From sequence record PP400787: 64,000 bases of DNA. One strand, given 5' to 3'. The DNA is from Escherichia phage FL23. Under the pieces are notes generated by a model. It saw nothing but the letters and a program-made list of their open reading frames with translations. It did not search any database and had not been told where the DNA came from. Position 1 is the stretch's first letter. Every line of letters starts with the position of its first letter. The translations under genes and the position numbers were made by a program. Of the stretch, positions 1,529 to 62,030 are shown piece by piece.

Positions 1529-1837
1529 ATGAAACTAACAACTGAGCAGAAAGTAGCAATTCGTGAAATTTTGAAAACTAAATTGTCCATGGGTGTTTCA
1601 AACGTAGTTTTTGAAAAGTCTGATGGTACTATTCGTACTATGAAAGGTACTCGTGATGCAGACTTTATGCCAACCATGCAAACTGGTAAATTGACTGAAT
1701 CTACTCGGAAAGAATCTACGGATATGATTCCAGTATTTGATGTTGAACTTGGCGCTTGGCGAGGTTTTTCTATTGACAAATTGATTTCTGTTAATGGTAT
1801 GAAAGTTGAGCATTTGCTCCAATTTATTGGTAAATAA
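1529..1837 (+). CDS. hypothetical protein (31.1 position)
   Basis: ATG immediately after previous stop; 102 aa; synteny. Confidence 0.65.
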   Translation: MKLTTEQKVAIREILKTKLSMGVSNVVFEKSDGTIRTMKGTRDADFMPTMQTGKLTESTRKESTDMIPVFDVELGAWRGFSIDKLISVNGMKVEHLLQFIGK

Positions 1838-1838
1838 A

Positions 1839-1863
1839 TGCTTTAAGAATTATTTGTTAATAT
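1839..1863 (+). promoter_or_regulatory. MotA-dependent middle promoter upstream of gene 31
   Basis: MotA box TGCTTTA (1839-1845), 12-nt spacer, -10 TAATAT (1858-1863). Confidence 0.5.
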
Positions 1864-1894
1864 TAATTTATCTGTTAACAAAAAAGGAAAAACG

Positions 1895-3095: not shown

Positions 3096-3121
3096 AGGAC
3101 TCCTTCGGGAGTCCTTTTTTA
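3096..3121 (+). terminator. rho-independent terminator
   Basis: AGGACTCC-TTCG-GGAGTCCT hairpin followed by TTTTTTATTTT. Confidence 0.75.
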
Positions 3122-3144
3122 TTTTCCAAAGATTGCATAAAGTT

Positions 3145-3187
3145 GTTTACAGTACGGTTCCTTTGTGATAGTATTATCTTACACAAA
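3145..3187 (+). promoter_or_regulatory. early promoter with stem-loop (PeSL-like)
   Basis: -35 GTTTAC (3145-3150), 18-nt spacer, extended -10 TGaTAGTAT; the -10 sits in the loop of inverted repeat TTTGTG/CACAAA. Confidence 0.55.
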
Positions 3188-3967: not shown

Positions 3968-3976
3968 AATAAATGA

Positions 3977-3998
3977 GGGGCTTCGGCCCCTATTGAGG
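3977..3998 (+). terminator. GC hairpin with UUCG loop (weak terminator or RNA stabiliser)
   Basis: GGGGC-TTCG-GCCCC followed by TATTGAGG (poor U-run). Confidence 0.35.
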
Positions 3999-7921: not shown

Positions 7922-7944
7922 GAATAAACACTAGAGAGGATATG

Positions 7945-10032
7945 ATGGAACTAATTACAGAATTATTTGACGAAGATACTACTCTTCCGATTACAAACTT
8001 AAATCCAAAGAAGAAAATACCACAAATTTTTTCAGTTCATGTTGATGATGCAATTGAACAACCAGGCTTTCGTTTATGTACCTATACATCTGGAGGTGAT
8101 ACTAATCGCGATTTAAAGATGGGCGATAAAATGATGCATATTGTTCCTTTTACATTAACTGCTAAAGGTTCAATTGCCAAATTAAAAGGTCTTGGTCCAA
8201 GCCCAATTAATTATATCAATTCAGTTTTTACTGTTGCAATGCAAACAATGCGTCAGTATAAAATTGATGCCTGCATGCTTCGTATTCTTAAGTCTAAAAC
8301 CGCTGGTCAAGCTCGACAAATTCAAGTTATTGCTGATAGACTTATCCGTAGTCGTTCAGGGGGCAGATACGTCCTTCTTAAGGAACTCTGGGATTATGAT
8401 AAAAAGTACGCATATATTCTTATACATCGCAAAAATGTATCACTGGAAGACATTCCGGGAGTTCCGGAAATTAGTACCGAGCTCTTTACTAAAGTTGAAT
8501 CGAAGGTCGGTGATGTTTATATCAATAAAGATACTGGAGCTCAAGTAACTAAAAATGAGGCAATTGCAGCATCTATTGCGCAAGAAAATGATAAACGTTC
8601 TGATCAAGCTGTAATCGTTAAAGTTAAAATTTCCCGTAGAGCAATTGCACAAAGCCAGTCATTGGAATCTTCTAGATTTGAAAGTGAATTATTCCAGAAG
8701 TATGAATCTACCGCAGCTAATTTCAATAAACCTGCTACCGCTCCTTTAATTCCCGAAGCAGAAGAAATGAAGCTTGGAATTAATTCATTAGCTTCTAAAA
8801 CTAAGGCAGCAAAAATTATTGCCGAAGGAACTGCGAATGAACTTCACTATGACTATAAATTCTTTTCAAAAAGTGAGGTTGATGAAGTTTCTGAAAAAAT
8901 TAAAGATGTAATTCTTAATGCGATTAAAAATGAACCAACTACTTCAATAAAATGTTTAGAGAAATACGCAGCAGCTGTTAATCAACTCTTTGAAGAATAT
9001 AAAGATAATTGGCTTGATAAACATAATAAAACTCGTAAAGGGCAGACAGATGAAGTCTGGGGAGAAATAACTAAAAATGCCTGGAATGCAGCAAAAACTA
9101 AATTCCTCAAACGAATGATTTATAGTTTTTCTGGAATTGGTGCAGGCCCAATGATTGATATTACTATTGCCCGTGATGGTTCTAAATATACTCCATCGCA
9201 AAAGCGCGGTATTAGAGAGTATTGTGGTTCAGGATATACAGACATTAATAATCTTCTTTTAGGTCGTTACAATCCAGAACGATATGATGTAATGAGTGAA
9301 AAAGAAATTGAATCTGCTATAAATAATTTAGATTCAGCTTTTGAAAATGGTGACCGCATACCGGAAGGCATTACAGTTTATCGTGCTCAAAGTATGACTG
9401 CTCCTATATACGAAGCACTAGTTAAAAATAAAGTGTTCTATTTCAGAAATTTTGTATCTACTTCTTTAACTCCTATCATTTTTGGACGTTTTGGAATTAC
9501 ACATGCTGGTATTGGTCTTTTAGAACCAGAAGCTCGTAATGAATTAACAGTTGATAAAAATGAAGAAGGAATAACTATTAATCCAAACGAAATAAGAGCG
9601 TATAAAGAAAATCCTGAATACGTTAAAGTTCAAATAGGATGGGCAATTGATGGAGCTCATAAAGTTAATGTTGTATATCCAGGAAGTCTCGGAATAGCAA
9701 CAGAAGCTGAAGTTATTCTACCGCGCGGACTGATGGTCAAAGTTAATAAAATAACTGATGCTTCTAATAATGACGGAACAACATCTAACAATACAAAACT
9801 CATTCAAGCTGAAGTTATGACCACAGAAGAACTCACCGAATCGGTAATCTATGACGGAGACCATTTAATGGAAACTGGTGAATTGGTTACAATGACAGGT
9901 GATATAGAAGATAGAGTTGACTTTGCATCATTTGTTTCATCAAATGTTAAACAGAAAGTAGAATCATCTCTTGGAATTATTGCGTCTTGCATAGATATTA
10001 CAAACATGCCTTACAAGTTCGTTCAAGGATAA
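7945..10032 (+). CDS. alt: Alt mono-ADP-ribosyltransferase (packaged, modifies host RNA polymerase)
   Basis: About 695 aa; ART catalytic triad elements R (YRAQS), STS (FVSTSLTP) and ExE (EAEVILPRG); late promoter TATAAATA at 7914-7921; GAGAGGA SD; ATG at 7942 is an alternative start. Confidence 0.88.
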   Translation: MELITELFDEDTTLPITNLNPKKKIPQIFSVHVDDAIEQPGFRLCTYTSGGDTNRDLKMGDKMMHIVPFTLTAKGSIAKLKGLGPSPINYINSVFTVAMQTMRQYKIDACMLRILKSKTAGQARQIQVIADRLIRSRSGGRYVLLKELWDYDKKYAYILIHRKNVSLEDIPGVPEISTELFTKVESKVGDVYINKDTGAQVTKNEAIAASIAQENDKRSDQAVIVKVKISRRAIAQSQSLESSRFESELFQKYESTAANFNKPATAPLIPEAEEMKLGINSLASKTKAAKIIAEGTANELHYDYKFFSKSEVDEVSEKIKDVILNAIKNEPTTSIKCLEKYAAAVNQLFEEYKDNWLDKHNKTRKGQTDEVWGEITKNAWNAAKTKFLKRMIYSFSGIGAGPMIDITIARDGSKYTPSQKRGIREYCGSGYTDINNLLLGRYNPERYDVMSEKEIESAINNLDSAFENGDRIPEGITVYRAQSMTAPIYEALVKNKVFYFRNFVSTSLTPIIFGRFGITHAGIGLLEPEARNELTVDKNEEGITINPNEIRAYKENPEYVKVQIGWAIDGAHKVNVVYPGSLGIATEAEVILPRGLMVKVNKITDASNNDGTTSNNTKLIQAEVMTTEELTESVIYDGDHLMETGELVTMTGDIEDRVDFASFVSSNVKQKVESSLGIIASCIDITNMPYKFVQG

Positions 10033-10035
10033 ATC

Positions 10036-10422
10036 ATGGAACTTATTACAGAATTATTTGACGGCGCTTCGGCGCCGGTTGTTAACTTAAATCCTAAGCA
10101 TAAAATACCACAAATTTTTGCTATCCAAGCCGGCGAAGAAAGCGTGCTTCCTGGATTTAGATTTTGTACATATACCTCTGGTGGTGATACAAATAAAAAC
10201 GTTAAGCCAGGCGATAAAATGATGCATATCGTAATGATAGGCGTCAACGAGAAATTATCGCTGGTTAAGCTTAGAAACTTGGGTGGAAATCCAATTGGCG
10301 TCATTAATGCGGTTTTTGATACTGCTCTTCAAACAATGAAGCAGTATAAAATTGACGCATGCCTATTCCGCGTACTAAAAAGTTCAAAATGTAGTTTACA
10401 AGTCCCTCGTGTTGTGTTATAG
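10036..10422 (+). CDS. Alt N-terminal-domain paralog, 128 aa (alt.-x-like)
   Basis: N-terminal ~110 aa closely parallel the Alt N-terminus (MELITELFD...NLNPK.KIPQIF...PGFR.CTYTSGGDTN...GDKMMHIV...YKIDAC); no ART motifs; AAGGA SD. Confidence 0.65.
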   Translation: MELITELFDGASAPVVNLNPKHKIPQIFAIQAGEESVLPGFRFCTYTSGGDTNKNVKPGDKMMHIVMIGVNEKLSLVKLRNLGGNPIGVINAVFDTALQTMKQYKIDACLFRVLKSSKCSLQVPRVVL

Positions 10423-23404: not shown

Positions 23405-23432
23405 AAGGGGCTTCGGCCCCTTTCTTCATTTT
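23405..23432 (+). terminator. rho-independent terminator after hoc
   Basis: GGGGC-TTCG-GCCCC followed by TTTCTTCATTTT. Confidence 0.65.
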
Positions 23433-58305: not shown

Positions 58306-59002
<697 letters not shown>

Positions 59003-59014
59003 TTTCACAAAGTT

Positions 59015-59054
59015 GTTTACATACTGATGAGGTAGTGATACTATTACCTCATCA
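59015..59054 (+). promoter_or_regulatory. early promoter with stem-loop (PeSL-like), ip locus copy 1
   Basis: -35 GTTTAC (59015-59020); extended -10 TGaTACTAT in the loop of perfect 10-bp inverted repeat TGATGAGGTA (59025-59034) / TACCTCATCA (59045-59054). Confidence 0.6.
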
Positions 59055-59075
59055 AAATTAATTAGGAAAATAAAA

Positions 59076-59333
59076 ATGAAAACTTTCAAAGAGTTTGCTA
59101 CAAAAACTACTATCACTGAATCTTCCCACGGTATGGAAGTAAAGCTTGGAATGGCTTTAGCTGAAGCTGAGCGTCTTTTCTCTCGTATTAAAGAACTTGC
59201 TGCTGCGGTCGATCCTTCATCTTTTAAAGGAGACCAAACTAAAGTTAAAGCACTTTTAGCATTATGCTCCGATGCAGGAGAAATTGCTAAAAATGGCTCT
59301 AAGATGAAGAAACGATTAGAAGATTTAAAATAA
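59076..59333 (+). CDS. internal head protein with N-terminal capsid-targeting sequence (ip-locus gene)
   Basis: N-terminus MKTFKEFATKTTITE resembles the T4 internal-protein CTS (MKTYQEFIAE) with a candidate gp21 cleavage site I-T-E; own early promoter; AGGAAA SD. Confidence 0.7.
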   Translation: MKTFKEFATKTTITESSHGMEVKLGMALAEAERLFSRIKELAAAVDPSSFKGDQTKVKALLALCSDAGEIAKNGSKMKKRLEDLK

Positions 59334-59345
59334 TTTCACAAAGTT

Positions 59346-59383
59346 GTTTACATAGGGTTTTAGTTGTGATACTATTACCCTAT
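59346..59383 (+). promoter_or_regulatory. early promoter with stem-loop (PeSL-like), ip locus copy 2
   Basis: -35 GTTTAC (59346-59351); same GTGATACTAT -10 core; flanked by imperfect inverted repeat ATAGGGT/ACCCTAT. Confidence 0.55.
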
Positions 59384-59409
59384 CAAAACAAAACCAAATG
59401 GAAATCAAA

Positions 59410-59643
59410 ATGAAAACTTACCAAGAATTTATTGCTGAAACTGCTGATGTAAAAGTTGAGTTTATTTACACTGGCAAGAAAGATAAAATGGGTGAAATGC
59501 CTCATGGAGTTCTTCGTGATGCATTAGATAATTTCGGTCAACTCGCCGCAGAAGATTACGGTGATAAAATTGTTGTTACTGGTCCTGCTGCAGTTATTGA
59601 AAAATGGGCAGCAGAAAATAAATCAATTTTTCGTAAAAAATAA
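59410..59643 (+). CDS. internal head protein with canonical CTS (ip-locus gene)
   Basis: Begins exactly MKTYQEFIAE at the second in-frame ATG (track start 59398 adds MEIK); own early promoter. Confidence 0.7.
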   Translation: MKTYQEFIAETADVKVEFIYTGKKDKMGEMPHGVLRDALDNFGQLAAEDYGDKIVVTGPAAVIEKWAAENKSIFRKK

Positions 59644-59683
59644 GTTTACTTTTAGATAGGGTAGTGATACTATTACCCTATCT
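59644..59683 (+). promoter_or_regulatory. early promoter with stem-loop (PeSL-like), ip locus copy 3
   Basis: -35 GTTTAC (59644-59649); GTGATACTAT in the loop of perfect 10-bp inverted repeat AGATAGGGTA (59654-59663) / TACCCTATCT (59674-59683). Confidence 0.6.
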
Positions 59684-59701
59684 ACTACTGAGGAGAATAA
59701 A

Positions 59702-59887: not shown

Positions 59888-60285
59888 TGAACGTTGAATA
59901 TTATGTATATGCGGATTACGAAAATAATCCGTCTAAAGATGAAGATAATCGTTTAGGTGTAGATGCTTTCGATTCCCCTGCGGCGGCATGGCAATGGGTT
60001 GAAAGAACCGATATTCCTTACCGTTATATTGAAGTGGTTGACCACGCAGGAAACAAGTATCCTAAGGAAGCATATGTTGCTTCCGGGAAGGTAAATTTCC
60101 TTTTGTTTGCAGGTGATAATTATTATCCCCGTGGTGGGTATACCGATTTAATTGCTAAAGCATTCTCTGAAGATGAACTCCGTGACATTATCAAAGAAAA
60201 TGAAAACAAACCGATGGATTCTAATCGCTTTGATTGGTGGCAAATCGTAAATGCTAATACTCACACTATTGTTGATGAAGGCTGA
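59887..60285 (+). CDS. hypothetical protein
   Basis: TAATG coupling; 132 aa. Confidence 0.65.
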   Translation: MNVEYYVYADYENNPSKDEDNRLGVDAFDSPAAAWQWVERTDIPYRYIEVVDHAGNKYPKEAYVASGKVNFLLFAGDNYYPRGGYTDLIAKAFSEDELRDIIKENENKPMDSNRFDWWQIVNANTHTIVDEG

Positions 60286-60287
60286 TA

Positions 60288-60575
60288 ATGATTCTTTATG
60301 CGAAAGTATCATCCATTGAAAATGGATATAAATATGATCAAGACGCGGCTAAAGCTTTGATTGATGATTATGGCATTTTAACATGTTTTGAAGTTGAAAA
60401 GGTTTACATTGACCGTTCATCTTCTCAAGTTAAATTAGTGAAGGAAGAACGTAAATTTAATACAGTAAATTTTGATTTCTTTATTGAAACAGAAAAAGGT
60501 CCTCTTGAATATGATATTTTCAAGAATCCTTTGGGTCTTGAATGCATCGTAAATATGTATTATTATAAATGGTAA
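60288..60575 (+). CDS. hypothetical protein
   Basis: ATG 2 nt after previous stop; 95 aa; followed by middle-promoter cassette. Confidence 0.65.
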   Translation: MILYAKVSSIENGYKYDQDAAKALIDDYGILTCFEVEKVYIDRSSSQVKLVKEERKFNTVNFDFFIETEKGPLEYDIFKNPLGLECIVNMYYYKW

Positions 60576-60578
60576 ATA

Positions 60579-60603
60579 TGCTTTAAGAATTATTTGTTAT
60601 TAT
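60579..60603 (+). promoter_or_regulatory. MotA-dependent middle promoter upstream of the tRNA cluster (second copy of the gene 31 cassette)
   Basis: 22-nt string ATGCTTTAAGAATTATTTGTTA (60578-60599) identical to 1838-1859; MotA box TGCTTTA, 12-nt spacer, -10 TATTAT. Confidence 0.5.
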
Positions 60604-60672
60604 TAACTCATATCGCACTGATTAATACCCTCTATCATCAAGGGTTCTTGCTTAAGAGCCTTTGTTAATAAT

Positions 60673-60745
60673 TGGGAATTAGCCAAGTTGGTAAGGCACT
60701 GGATTTTGATTCCAGGATGCAAAGGTTCGAGTCCTTTATTCCCAG
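60673..60745 (+). tRNA. tRNA-Gln (anticodon UUG)
   Basis: Cloverleaf: acceptor TGGGAAT/ATTCCCA, anticodon loop TTTTGAT, T-arm GGTTCGAGTCC; CCA not encoded. Confidence 0.85.
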
Positions 60746-60746
60746 C

Positions 60747-60833
60747 GCGAGAATGGCCAAATTGGTAAAGGCACAGCACTTAAAATGCTGCGGAATGATT
60801 TCCTTGTGGGTTCGAGTCCCACTTCTCGTACCA
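60747..60833 (+). tRNA. tRNA-Leu (anticodon UAA), long variable arm
   Basis: Acceptor GCGAGAA/TTCTCGT, anticodon loop CTTAAAA, T-arm GGTTCGAGTCC, encoded CCA. Confidence 0.85.
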
Positions 60834-60839
60834 AAGTTT

Positions 60840-60911
<72 letters not shown>

Positions 60912-60923
60912 AAATTTAATTTA

Positions 60924-60997
60924 CTCCGTGTAGCTCAGTTTGGTAGAGCGCCTGATTTGGGATCAGGAGGTCCAAGGTTCAAATCCTTGTATGGAGA
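60924..60997 (+). tRNA. tRNA-Pro (anticodon UGG)
   Basis: D-arm TAGCTCAGTTTGGTAGAGC, anticodon loop TTTGGGA, T-arm GGTTCAAATCC. Confidence 0.8.
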
Positions 60998-60999
60998 TT

Positions 61000-61086
61000 G
61001 GAGGCGTGGCAGAGTGGTTTAATGCACCGGTCTTGAAAACCGGCAGTCGCTCCGGCGACTCATAGGTTCAAATCCTATCGCCTCCG
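61000..61086 (+). tRNA. tRNA-Ser (anticodon UGA), long variable arm
   Basis: Acceptor GGAGGCG/CGCCTCC, anticodon loop CTTGAAA, T-arm GGTTCAAATCC. Confidence 0.85.
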
Positions 61087-61093
61087 TAATTTC

Positions 61094-61166
61094 GCTGATT
61101 TAGCTCAGTAGGTAGAGCACCTCACTTGTAATGAGGACGTCGGCGGTTCGATTCCGTCAATCAGCA
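61094..61166 (+). tRNA. tRNA-Thr (anticodon UGU)
   Basis: Acceptor GCTGATT/AATCAGC, D-arm TAGCTCAGTAGGTAGAGC, anticodon loop CTTGTAA, T-arm GGTTCGATTCC. Confidence 0.85.
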
Positions 61167-61172
61167 TATCAA

Positions 61173-61244
61173 GGCCCTGTAGCTGGAAGGTTCAAGCAAG
61201 CGACTCATAATCGCCAGATGGTGGTTCAATTCCACCCAGGGCCA
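61173..61244 (+). tRNA. tRNA-Ile (anticodon CAU, presumed lysidine-modified; reads as Met by sequence alone)
   Basis: Acceptor GGCCCTG/CAGGGCC, anticodon loop CTCATAA, T-arm GGTTCAATTCC; T4 encodes a CAU tRNA-Ile at this position. Confidence 0.7.
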
Positions 61245-61285
61245 TATTTTGAGAACATAAATACTCTTAGAAATAGGAGATATTT

Positions 61286-61951
61286 ATGTTCCATTACATT
61301 TATAAAATAACAAATAAAATTAATAATAAAATCTATATAGGCGCTCATTCTACCGAAAATTTAGATGATGGATATATGGGTTCTGGTAAATTATTAAAAA
61401 GAGCCCAAGATAAGTATGGTATAGAAAATTTTTCTAAAGAAATATTAGAGTTCTTTGACGATAAAACCTCTATGTTTGAGTCAGAAAAGAATATTGTGAC
61501 TGAAGAGTTTTTAAAGCACCCTGATGTTTATAATTTGAAATTAGGTGGTGAAGGTGGTTGGGACCATTTAAACACTAAAGAATATTTGGATAAAAAGAAA
61601 GAAGCTTCCTTAAAAGGAGCTGCCGCTTTTAAAACCAGATTTGAGAACGACCCAGACCTTAAAGAAAAATATCGTAAAATGGGTTCAGAAAGGTTTAAAC
61701 AGCTTTGGGATAATCCTAAGTATAGAGAGAAATTTTTAAATACTAAATCTTTCTTGGGTAAGACCCATACTCCTGAAACTATTAATAAAATGAAAGAATC
61801 TCACGCTAAAAATAATCACCAGAAAGGTGAAAAGAATTCCCAATTTGGTATGATGTGGATTCATTCATTAGATGAAAAAGTTTCTAAACGTATTAAGAAA
61901 ACTGACCCAATTCCAGAAGGATGGTTTAAAGGTCGAAAAATGAAATTTTAA
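61286..61951 (+). CDS. segB: GIY-YIG homing endonuclease SegB
   Basis: N-terminal GIY-YIG module (KIYIGAHS...YMGSGK); 221 aa; inserted between tRNA-Ile and tRNA-Arg as in T4; AGGAGA SD. Confidence 0.85.
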   Translation: MFHYIYKITNKINNKIYIGAHSTENLDDGYMGSGKLLKRAQDKYGIENFSKEILEFFDDKTSMFESEKNIVTEEFLKHPDVYNLKLGGEGGWDHLNTKEYLDKKKEASLKGAAAFKTRFENDPDLKEKYRKMGSERFKQLWDNPKYREKFLNTKSFLGKTHTPETINKMKESHAKNNHQKGEKNSQFGMMWIHSLDEKVSKRIKKTDPIPEGWFKGRKMKF

Positions 61952-61954
61952 CTA

Positions 61955-62030
61955 CGAGGCATAGCTCAGAAGGAAGAGCAAGGACCTTCTAAGTCCTGGG
62001 TCGTAGGTTCGATCCCTACTGCCTCGACCA
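61955..62030 (+). tRNA. tRNA-Arg (anticodon UCU)
   Basis: Acceptor CGAGGCA/TGCCTCG, anticodon loop CTTCTAA, T-arm GGTTCGATCCC, encoded CCA; starts 4 nt after segB stop. Confidence 0.85.

Follow-up and report, generated by a model that had tools for sequence, protein, structure and literature searches.

The window, by which we mean the whole 64,000-nucleotide stretch of DNA from Escherichia phage FL23 (PP400787) that was analysed, carries two nearly identical blocks at two gene junctions (Table 1). By T4 annotation, genes 31.1 and 31 meet at locus A, and at locus B trna.2, a 95-aa open reading frame, is followed by tRNA-Gln, which opens the tRNA cluster. The window is 100% identical to FL44 (PP400790.1), a Tequatrovirus close to T4, across the two loci compared (1300-2400 and 60000-61100), and its orientation is the reverse complement of the FL44 record. 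T4 shares 97.8% identity with the window at the gene 31 locus. Within the tRNA cluster, ARAGORN calls the gene at 61173-61244 a tRNA-Met (anticodon CAT), whereas the T4 record gives tRNA-Ile at the same position of the cluster; this discrepancy could reflect the naming of the tRNA by its unmodified anticodon.

Table 1. Genes and promoter elements at the two loci of the window
Feature	Position	Strand	Remarks
Gene 31.1, 102 aa	1529..1837	+	Stop TAA 1835-1837 abuts the MotA box; from the open reading frame list and T4 annotation of the orthologous locus
Copy A promoter block GGTAAATAAATGCTTTAAGAATTATTTGTTAATATTAATTTAT	1829..1871	+	Ortholog of T4 P31; T4 start 131540 maps onto the block
Copy A MotA box AAATGCTTTA	1836..1845	+	Fits the consensus of PMC2988021
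Copy A 12-bp spacer AGAATTATTTGT	1846..1857	+	Ends in extended -10 TGn; identical in copy B
Copy A -10 TAATAT	1858..1863	+	TATTAT in T4 and most relatives
Copy A predicted start (A)	1870	+	By homology with T4 P31 start 131540; 7 nt after the -10
Gene 31, GroES-like co-chaperonin, 111 aa	1895..2230	+	Predicted to be driven by copy A
trna.2, 95 aa	60288..60575	+	Stop TAA 60573-60575 within the shared GGTAAATA
Copy B promoter block GGTAAATATGCTTTAAGAATTATTTGTTATTATTAACTCAT	60571..60611	+	Ortholog of T4 PtRNA (PtRNAE/PtRNAsc1); T4 start 72593 maps onto the block
Copy B MotA box ATATGCTTTA	60576..60585	+	Fits the consensus of PMC2988021
Copy B 12-bp spacer AGAATTATTTGT	60586..60597	+	With TGn
Copy B -10 TATTAT	60598..60603	+	
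Copy B predicted start (A)	60610	+	By homology with T4 PtRNA start 72593
tRNA cluster	60673..62030	+	Transcription unit predicted to be driven by copy B
tRNA Gln, Leu, Gly, Pro, Ser, Thr, Met/Ile	60673-61244	+	
segB	61286-61951	+	Within the tRNA cluster
tRNA-Arg	61955-62030	+	Within the tRNA cluster

A sequence-only reading of this DNA had pointed to a 22-nt identity at two loci about 58.7 kb apart, and we found exactly that: ATGCTTTAAGAATTATTTGTTA occurs twice in the window, at 1838-1859 and 60578-60599, both on the + strand and 58,740 bp apart. A search of the window at up to three mismatches returned no match beyond these two copies. Ungapped similarity runs from 1838 to 1871 and from 60578 to 60611 (31 of 34 positions identical; repeat family D7), and, as the same reading had proposed, shared sequence also lies upstream of the 22-mer, where GGTAAATA is common to both copies across a 2-nt indel. 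The leaders that follow the two copies on the 3' side are unrelated, and the shared block, from about -41/-39 to +2, amounts to a whole promoter and little else. The further claim that both copies start at a stop codon holds in that a stop touches the block at each locus, but the registers differ: copy A reads GGT AAA TAA (stop 1835-1837) and copy B reads TGG TAA (stop 60573-60575), at positions of the repeat that are not homologous.

Among the exact direct repeats of the window, the 22-nt repeat ranks second in length. The longest, 33 nt at 58991/59322, lies within blocks of ~71 nt with early promoters (GTTTACA ... TGATACTAT), which stand at 58987-59057, 59318-59388 and 59616-59686, with a weaker one at 3117-3187. 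These blocks lie upstream of internal-protein-like genes, an inverted repeat flanks the -10 in each, and they look similar to promoter/stem-loop cassettes within a variable region. A direct repeat of ~72-94% identity (7942-8144 vs 10033-10232; families D2 and D8) looks, by its position, like the ancient duplication of the beginning of gene alt (alt.-1/alt.-2) that the T4 record notes. At 3976-3991 and 23406-23421 the window has the same hairpin, GGGGCTTCGGCCCC, whose loop is of the UUCG type.

Both copies are recognisable as middle promoters of the T4 type. At T4 middle promoters, AsiA restructures region 4 of sigma-70 and MotA binds a box centred at -30 (PMC2988021). The consensus of this box is (a/t)(a/t)(a/t)TGCTTtA, centred near -30; RNA polymerase starts 7 nt after the -10, and TGn occurs in roughly half of the T4 middle promoters (PMC2988021). 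The mapped promoters in Table 1 of that paper include P31 (131540) and PtRNAE/PtRNAsc1 (72593), whose starts the table credits to Nivinskas et al. 1989 and Guild et al. 1988, respectively. When we placed the two starts on the T4 sequence, each landed on the same A within the shared block, 7 nt downstream of the -10. Against the middle-promoter spacing of 12 +/- 1 bp between MotA box and -10 (TAnnnT), both copies have 12 bp, in line with the sequence-only reading, which had seen a MotA box and a -10 at correct spacing in each. A scan of the + strand for the sigma-70 -35/-10 consensus called neither copy. Outside the window, the FL44 record encodes MotA (211 aa; PF09158, E 9e-67, and PF09114, E 5e-61) and AsiA (90 aa; PF09010, E 1e-42), and the record of phage Lutter has a promoter annotated at the place equivalent to copy A (2038-2064 of the retrieved segment). 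As orthologs of the mapped T4 promoters P31 and PtRNA in a phage that encodes both MotA and AsiA, the two copies are, on this homology, MotA/AsiA-dependent middle promoters of a kind already known and mapped in T4, and their activity in FL44 itself is predicted from the T4 orthology.

Finding middle promoters in a T4 relative is ordinary; the likeness between these two is not. We assembled the T4 genome from four retrieved pieces and extracted its 58 listed middle promoters, which gave 1,653 pairs. From -36 to +2, P31 and PtRNA agree at 34 of 38 positions, compared with a mean of 16.7 (SD 2.5) over the 1,653 pairs and 26 in the next best pair. Their gapped local score is 35, compared with a mean of 9.2 (SD 2.6) and a next best of 25, the latter from P39/P47, which have a terminator hairpin in common. 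At T4 P39, P47, P43 and PmobB, a UUCG-type hairpin like those noted above is joined directly to the MotA box, and these promoters form the next most similar pairs. P31/PtRNA is a single extreme outlier among the listed T4 middle promoters, and the two are alike even where the consensus leaves positions free. Without the MotA box, the remaining 21 nt (spacer, -10 and three more bases) match the whole of T4 at PtRNA with 0 mismatches, at P31 with 1 and at P32 with 2, and the fourth-best match has 4. The same 21-nt part has no third match in the window, where the next one has 4 mismatches, and although a loose MotA-box/-10 pattern finds 11 sites in the window against 4.75 expected, none of the others has the spacer of the two copies.

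Two A+T-rich sequences that both fit the middle-promoter consensus might match by chance, given that the genome is A+T-rich and that the MotA box and -10 already fix ~15 of the 34 positions. However, no second match to the 22-mer arose in any of 100 shuffles of the sequence, the longest exact repeat in 60 first-order Markov simulations of the window was 14-19 nt and never 22, and the pair lies ~7 SD above real middle-promoter pairs in identity and ~10 SD above them on gapped score. The shuffles, simulations and promoter-pair distributions refute the chance reading, to which we assign practically no probability. With the 21-nt scan of T4, the same analyses rule out a generic consensus as the explanation. 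The sequence-only reading had named a 22-mer common genome-wide as the result that would speak against it; instead, the 22-mer has 2 copies in the window and the pair is extreme among the 1,653. In the searchable literature, which does not reach Guild 1988 and Nivinskas 1989, we found no paper noting the exceptional similarity of P31 and PtRNA; the promoters themselves are known, and their paralogy is a modest new point.

A 50-nt promoter query matched 723 phage records at 1,214 places in all, a total that fits two places in ~490 records and one in the rest (~230). Among the matches listed, records with two places bore Tequatrovirus-type names, and the four single-place records examined belonged to Mosigvirus, Karamvirus and Dhakavirus. 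BYEP02 (OR757454.1) had three places for this query, compared with at most two in the other records among the matches listed; its third place may be genuine or may stem from a duplication in the assembly. Matches to a degenerate pattern in 7 IMG/VR and 14 metagenome loci, a sample too small for a population test of conversion, lay at one of the two loci in 21 of 21 cases.

This distribution bears on the proposal of a mobile regulatory module made by the sequence-only reading. In its strongest form, the block would be an actively mobile regulatory cassette resembling the PeSLs of RB49/phi1-type phages, in which a sigma-70 early promoter is coupled to a terminator stem-loop (PMC2839356, PMC4122927). 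Many copies of PeSLs cluster in hyperplastic regions and recombine to mini-circles (PMC2839356), and a comparable element here would move, or would act as a site of recombination by which adjacent genes are shuffled between phages. Such mobility would be in keeping with a 172-aa open reading frame that is present or absent directly upstream of the PtRNA block among Tequatroviruses, and with the related T4 promoter P32, which lies within the mobile gene segG, whose insertion replaces 35 nt that carry a different P32 in FL44. However, the record counts fit two places in ~490 Tequatrovirus records and one in ~230 others, every environmental match lies at the same two loci, the block is without stem-loop, terminator or -35 element, and a crossover between the direct copies would delete 58.7 kb with head and tail structural genes. 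No terminator-like site was found in 1500-2700 or 60200-60760, and no G+C-rich inverted repeat was found beside either copy. The proposal of a mobile module is not borne out by these results, and we consider an actively mobile cassette very improbable.

In megablast, homology to Mosigvirus sets in precisely at the edge of the block, at 1835, as a module junction might; we rejected such a junction because the Mosigvirus JK42 keeps a 31.1 ortholog that is 44% identical, which indicates unequal divergence rather than replacement, and the apparent breakpoint, which might have favoured a mobile cassette, reflects only the faster divergence of 31.1. At the other locus, the extra 172-aa open reading frame stands between trna.2 and the PtRNA block in several Tequatroviruses (five contigs) and in Mosigvirus, with 80% DNA identity between the Tequatrovirus and Mosigvirus versions. 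It is absent in FL44 and T4, where its site corresponds to window 60556-60567. The MotA box is made up of its final codons and stop (TTG CTT TAA), and this variable gene adjoins the PtRNA block on one side only.

We then consider how two promoters at fixed places came to be so alike. Orthologous promoters were compared in seven other lineages (Mosigvirus, Dhakavirus, Karamvirus, Gelderlandvirus, Jiaodavirus, Marfavirus and an Erwinia phage). Most of them have, at both loci, the middle promoter frame TGCTTTAA...TG.TA.TAT followed by TAATTCAT or TAATCTAT, and the P31 start region of Jiaodavirus deviates from it. The P31 spacer varies freely between lineages, whereas the PtRNA spacer is nearly constant. 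Over 34 nt, a length too short for a reliable tree or a formal conversion-tract test, Tequatrovirus P31 differs from the PtRNA of other genera at 2-6 positions and from the P31 of the seven lineages at 5-13. Within single genomes, P31 and PtRNA differ at 0 positions in Lutter, 2 in T4, 3 in FL44, 4 in Dhakavirus and 12 in Karamvirus; the 8 mismatches for Mosigvirus come from promoters taken from two different phages. Paralogs are closer than P31 orthologs in Tequatrovirus (0-3 vs 5-13) and marginally so in Dhakavirus (4), but not in Mosigvirus (8, two phages) or Karamvirus (12). Tequatrovirus P31 thus lies nearer to PtRNA from other genera than to P31 orthologs, which suggests that P31 was overwritten by a copy of the PtRNA type, or is repeatedly converted, in the Tequatrovirus line, and near-identity that includes consensus-free positions makes paralogy the best explanation.

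We consider it quite probable that these are two middle promoters made near-identical by paralogy through ectopic copying, and copying between these two loci is itself reasonably likely. Ectopic, non-crossover homologous recombination would have replaced one promoter with a copy of the other, most likely in the direction PtRNA to P31 and in the ancestry of Tequatrovirus; both the event and its direction are read from the pattern of the sequences. Purifying selection would then hold both copies at their fixed positions, where copy A would drive gene 31 and copy B the tRNA cluster. By T4 annotation, the 58.7-kb interval between the copies contains structural genes of the head and tail; these are essential in T4. 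Because a crossover between the direct copies would delete this interval with its essential genes, we infer that only non-crossover conversion is plausible. The sequence-only reading had offered a recombination footprint as its other possibility. The common descent that this implies is the best reading of the cross-genus distances, and we regard the footprint as plausible, with 34 nt falling short of proof.

Several observations temper this view. An older duplication followed by slow divergence, together with quicker drift in Mosigvirus and Dhakavirus, would explain the distances almost as well as a conversion specific to Tequatrovirus, because the P31 of Gelderlandvirus is also PtRNA-like (3 mismatches to Mosigvirus PtRNA). 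The C/T polymorphism of position 30, present at both loci within Tequatrovirus, is in keeping with copying, but its minor allele occurs in only 3 of ~25 sequences and the shared variation could be recurrent mutation. Nor do we take the upstream GGTAAATA as proof of copying, because each locus explains it by its own conserved C-terminal codons: at P31 it specifies the Gly-Lys-stop that is conserved in 31.1 and found also in Jiaodavirus, and at PtRNA the Trp-stop of trna.2. The shared upstream sequence can be read as coincidence.

Selection could also account for the likeness if spacer, TGn, TATTAT and start region each influence how well polymerase modified by MotA/AsiA works, so that both promoters converged on, or were stabilised at, one optimal sequence without any copying. 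The PtRNA spacer, AGAATTAT(T/G)TG(T/A), hardly varies across Tequatrovirus, Mosigvirus and Karamvirus, and this conservation means that the spacer may be selected, which weakens the case for copying. The frame TGCTTTAA...TG.TA.TAT TAATTCAT persists at P31 even in Karamvirus and Gelderlandvirus, and the use of TGn by about half of T4 middle promoters (PMC2988021) points the same way. However, P31 orthologs have quite different spacers (GAATAGCG, AATGAGCA, ACTGACCA and AATTGTTT), the consensus leaves spacer positions free, and the shared spacer is absent from the other 55 listed T4 middle promoters with the sole exception of P32 (2 mismatches). We regard convergence or stabilising selection without copying as unlikely. 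If copying between the loci is the correct account, it would show that concerted evolution can reach the regulatory elements of a lytic phage with high recombination, and the pair would provide a natural way to test whether the spacer of a middle promoter has a bearing on its MotA/AsiA-dependent activity.

The third relative, P32 (NC_000866.4 148061-148081), is a mapped T4 middle promoter (PMC2988021). With its start at 148057, it carries AGAATTATGTGTTATTATTA, which matches Mosigvirus PtRNA at 20 of 20 positions and Tequatrovirus PtRNA at 19 of 20. It lies inside segG, in the 3' portion of this GIY-YIG homing-endonuclease gene, where the same DNA encodes ...IAYENYVLLL.... A P32 segment of the T4 type was found in 142 records and, among the 40 listed, it lies under an endonuclease gene wherever a function is annotated. 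FL44 is without segG; where T4 has the ~620-nt segG insertion, 35 nt stand that carry a middle-type promoter, TTGCTTATTATAAATAGATTATAAT, unrelated to the block (235-265 of the retrieved segment, minus strand). A promoter of the shared family would travel inside segG and replace the resident gene 32 promoter upon segG insertion. P32 in segG is the only hint of promoter portability, and it is a diverged relative outside the window. We tentatively propose that dispersed middle promoters of T4-like phages form paralogous families under ectopic gene conversion (here P31, PtRNA and P32), with segG carrying a portable promoter; if so, segG would be a selfish element that supplies one.

Overall, the two copies can be set beside several known systems. 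Like a PeSL, the block is a short repeated promoter module at a gene boundary in a T4-type genome, and one copy, the PtRNA block, borders an insertion/deletion polymorphism of an open reading frame. Unlike PeSLs, the copies have a MotA box in the -35 region and no stem-loop, and there are only two of them in 64 kb, 58.7 kb apart; the absent -35 and stem-loop exclude both from PeSL membership. T4 P32 differs from P31 and PtRNA by one extra base between MotA box and spacer and by a different start region. The closest counterparts are T4 P31 and PtRNA themselves. Relative to T4 P31, copy A of FL44 has T for C in the spacer, TAATAT for TATTAT and TTTAT for TTCAT. The loci and their flanking genes (31.1/31 and trna.2/tRNA-Gln) are the same in the window as in T4, the MotA box, 12-bp spacing, -10 class and start A are all matched, and T4's own pair is likewise nearly identical, at 32 of 34 positions.
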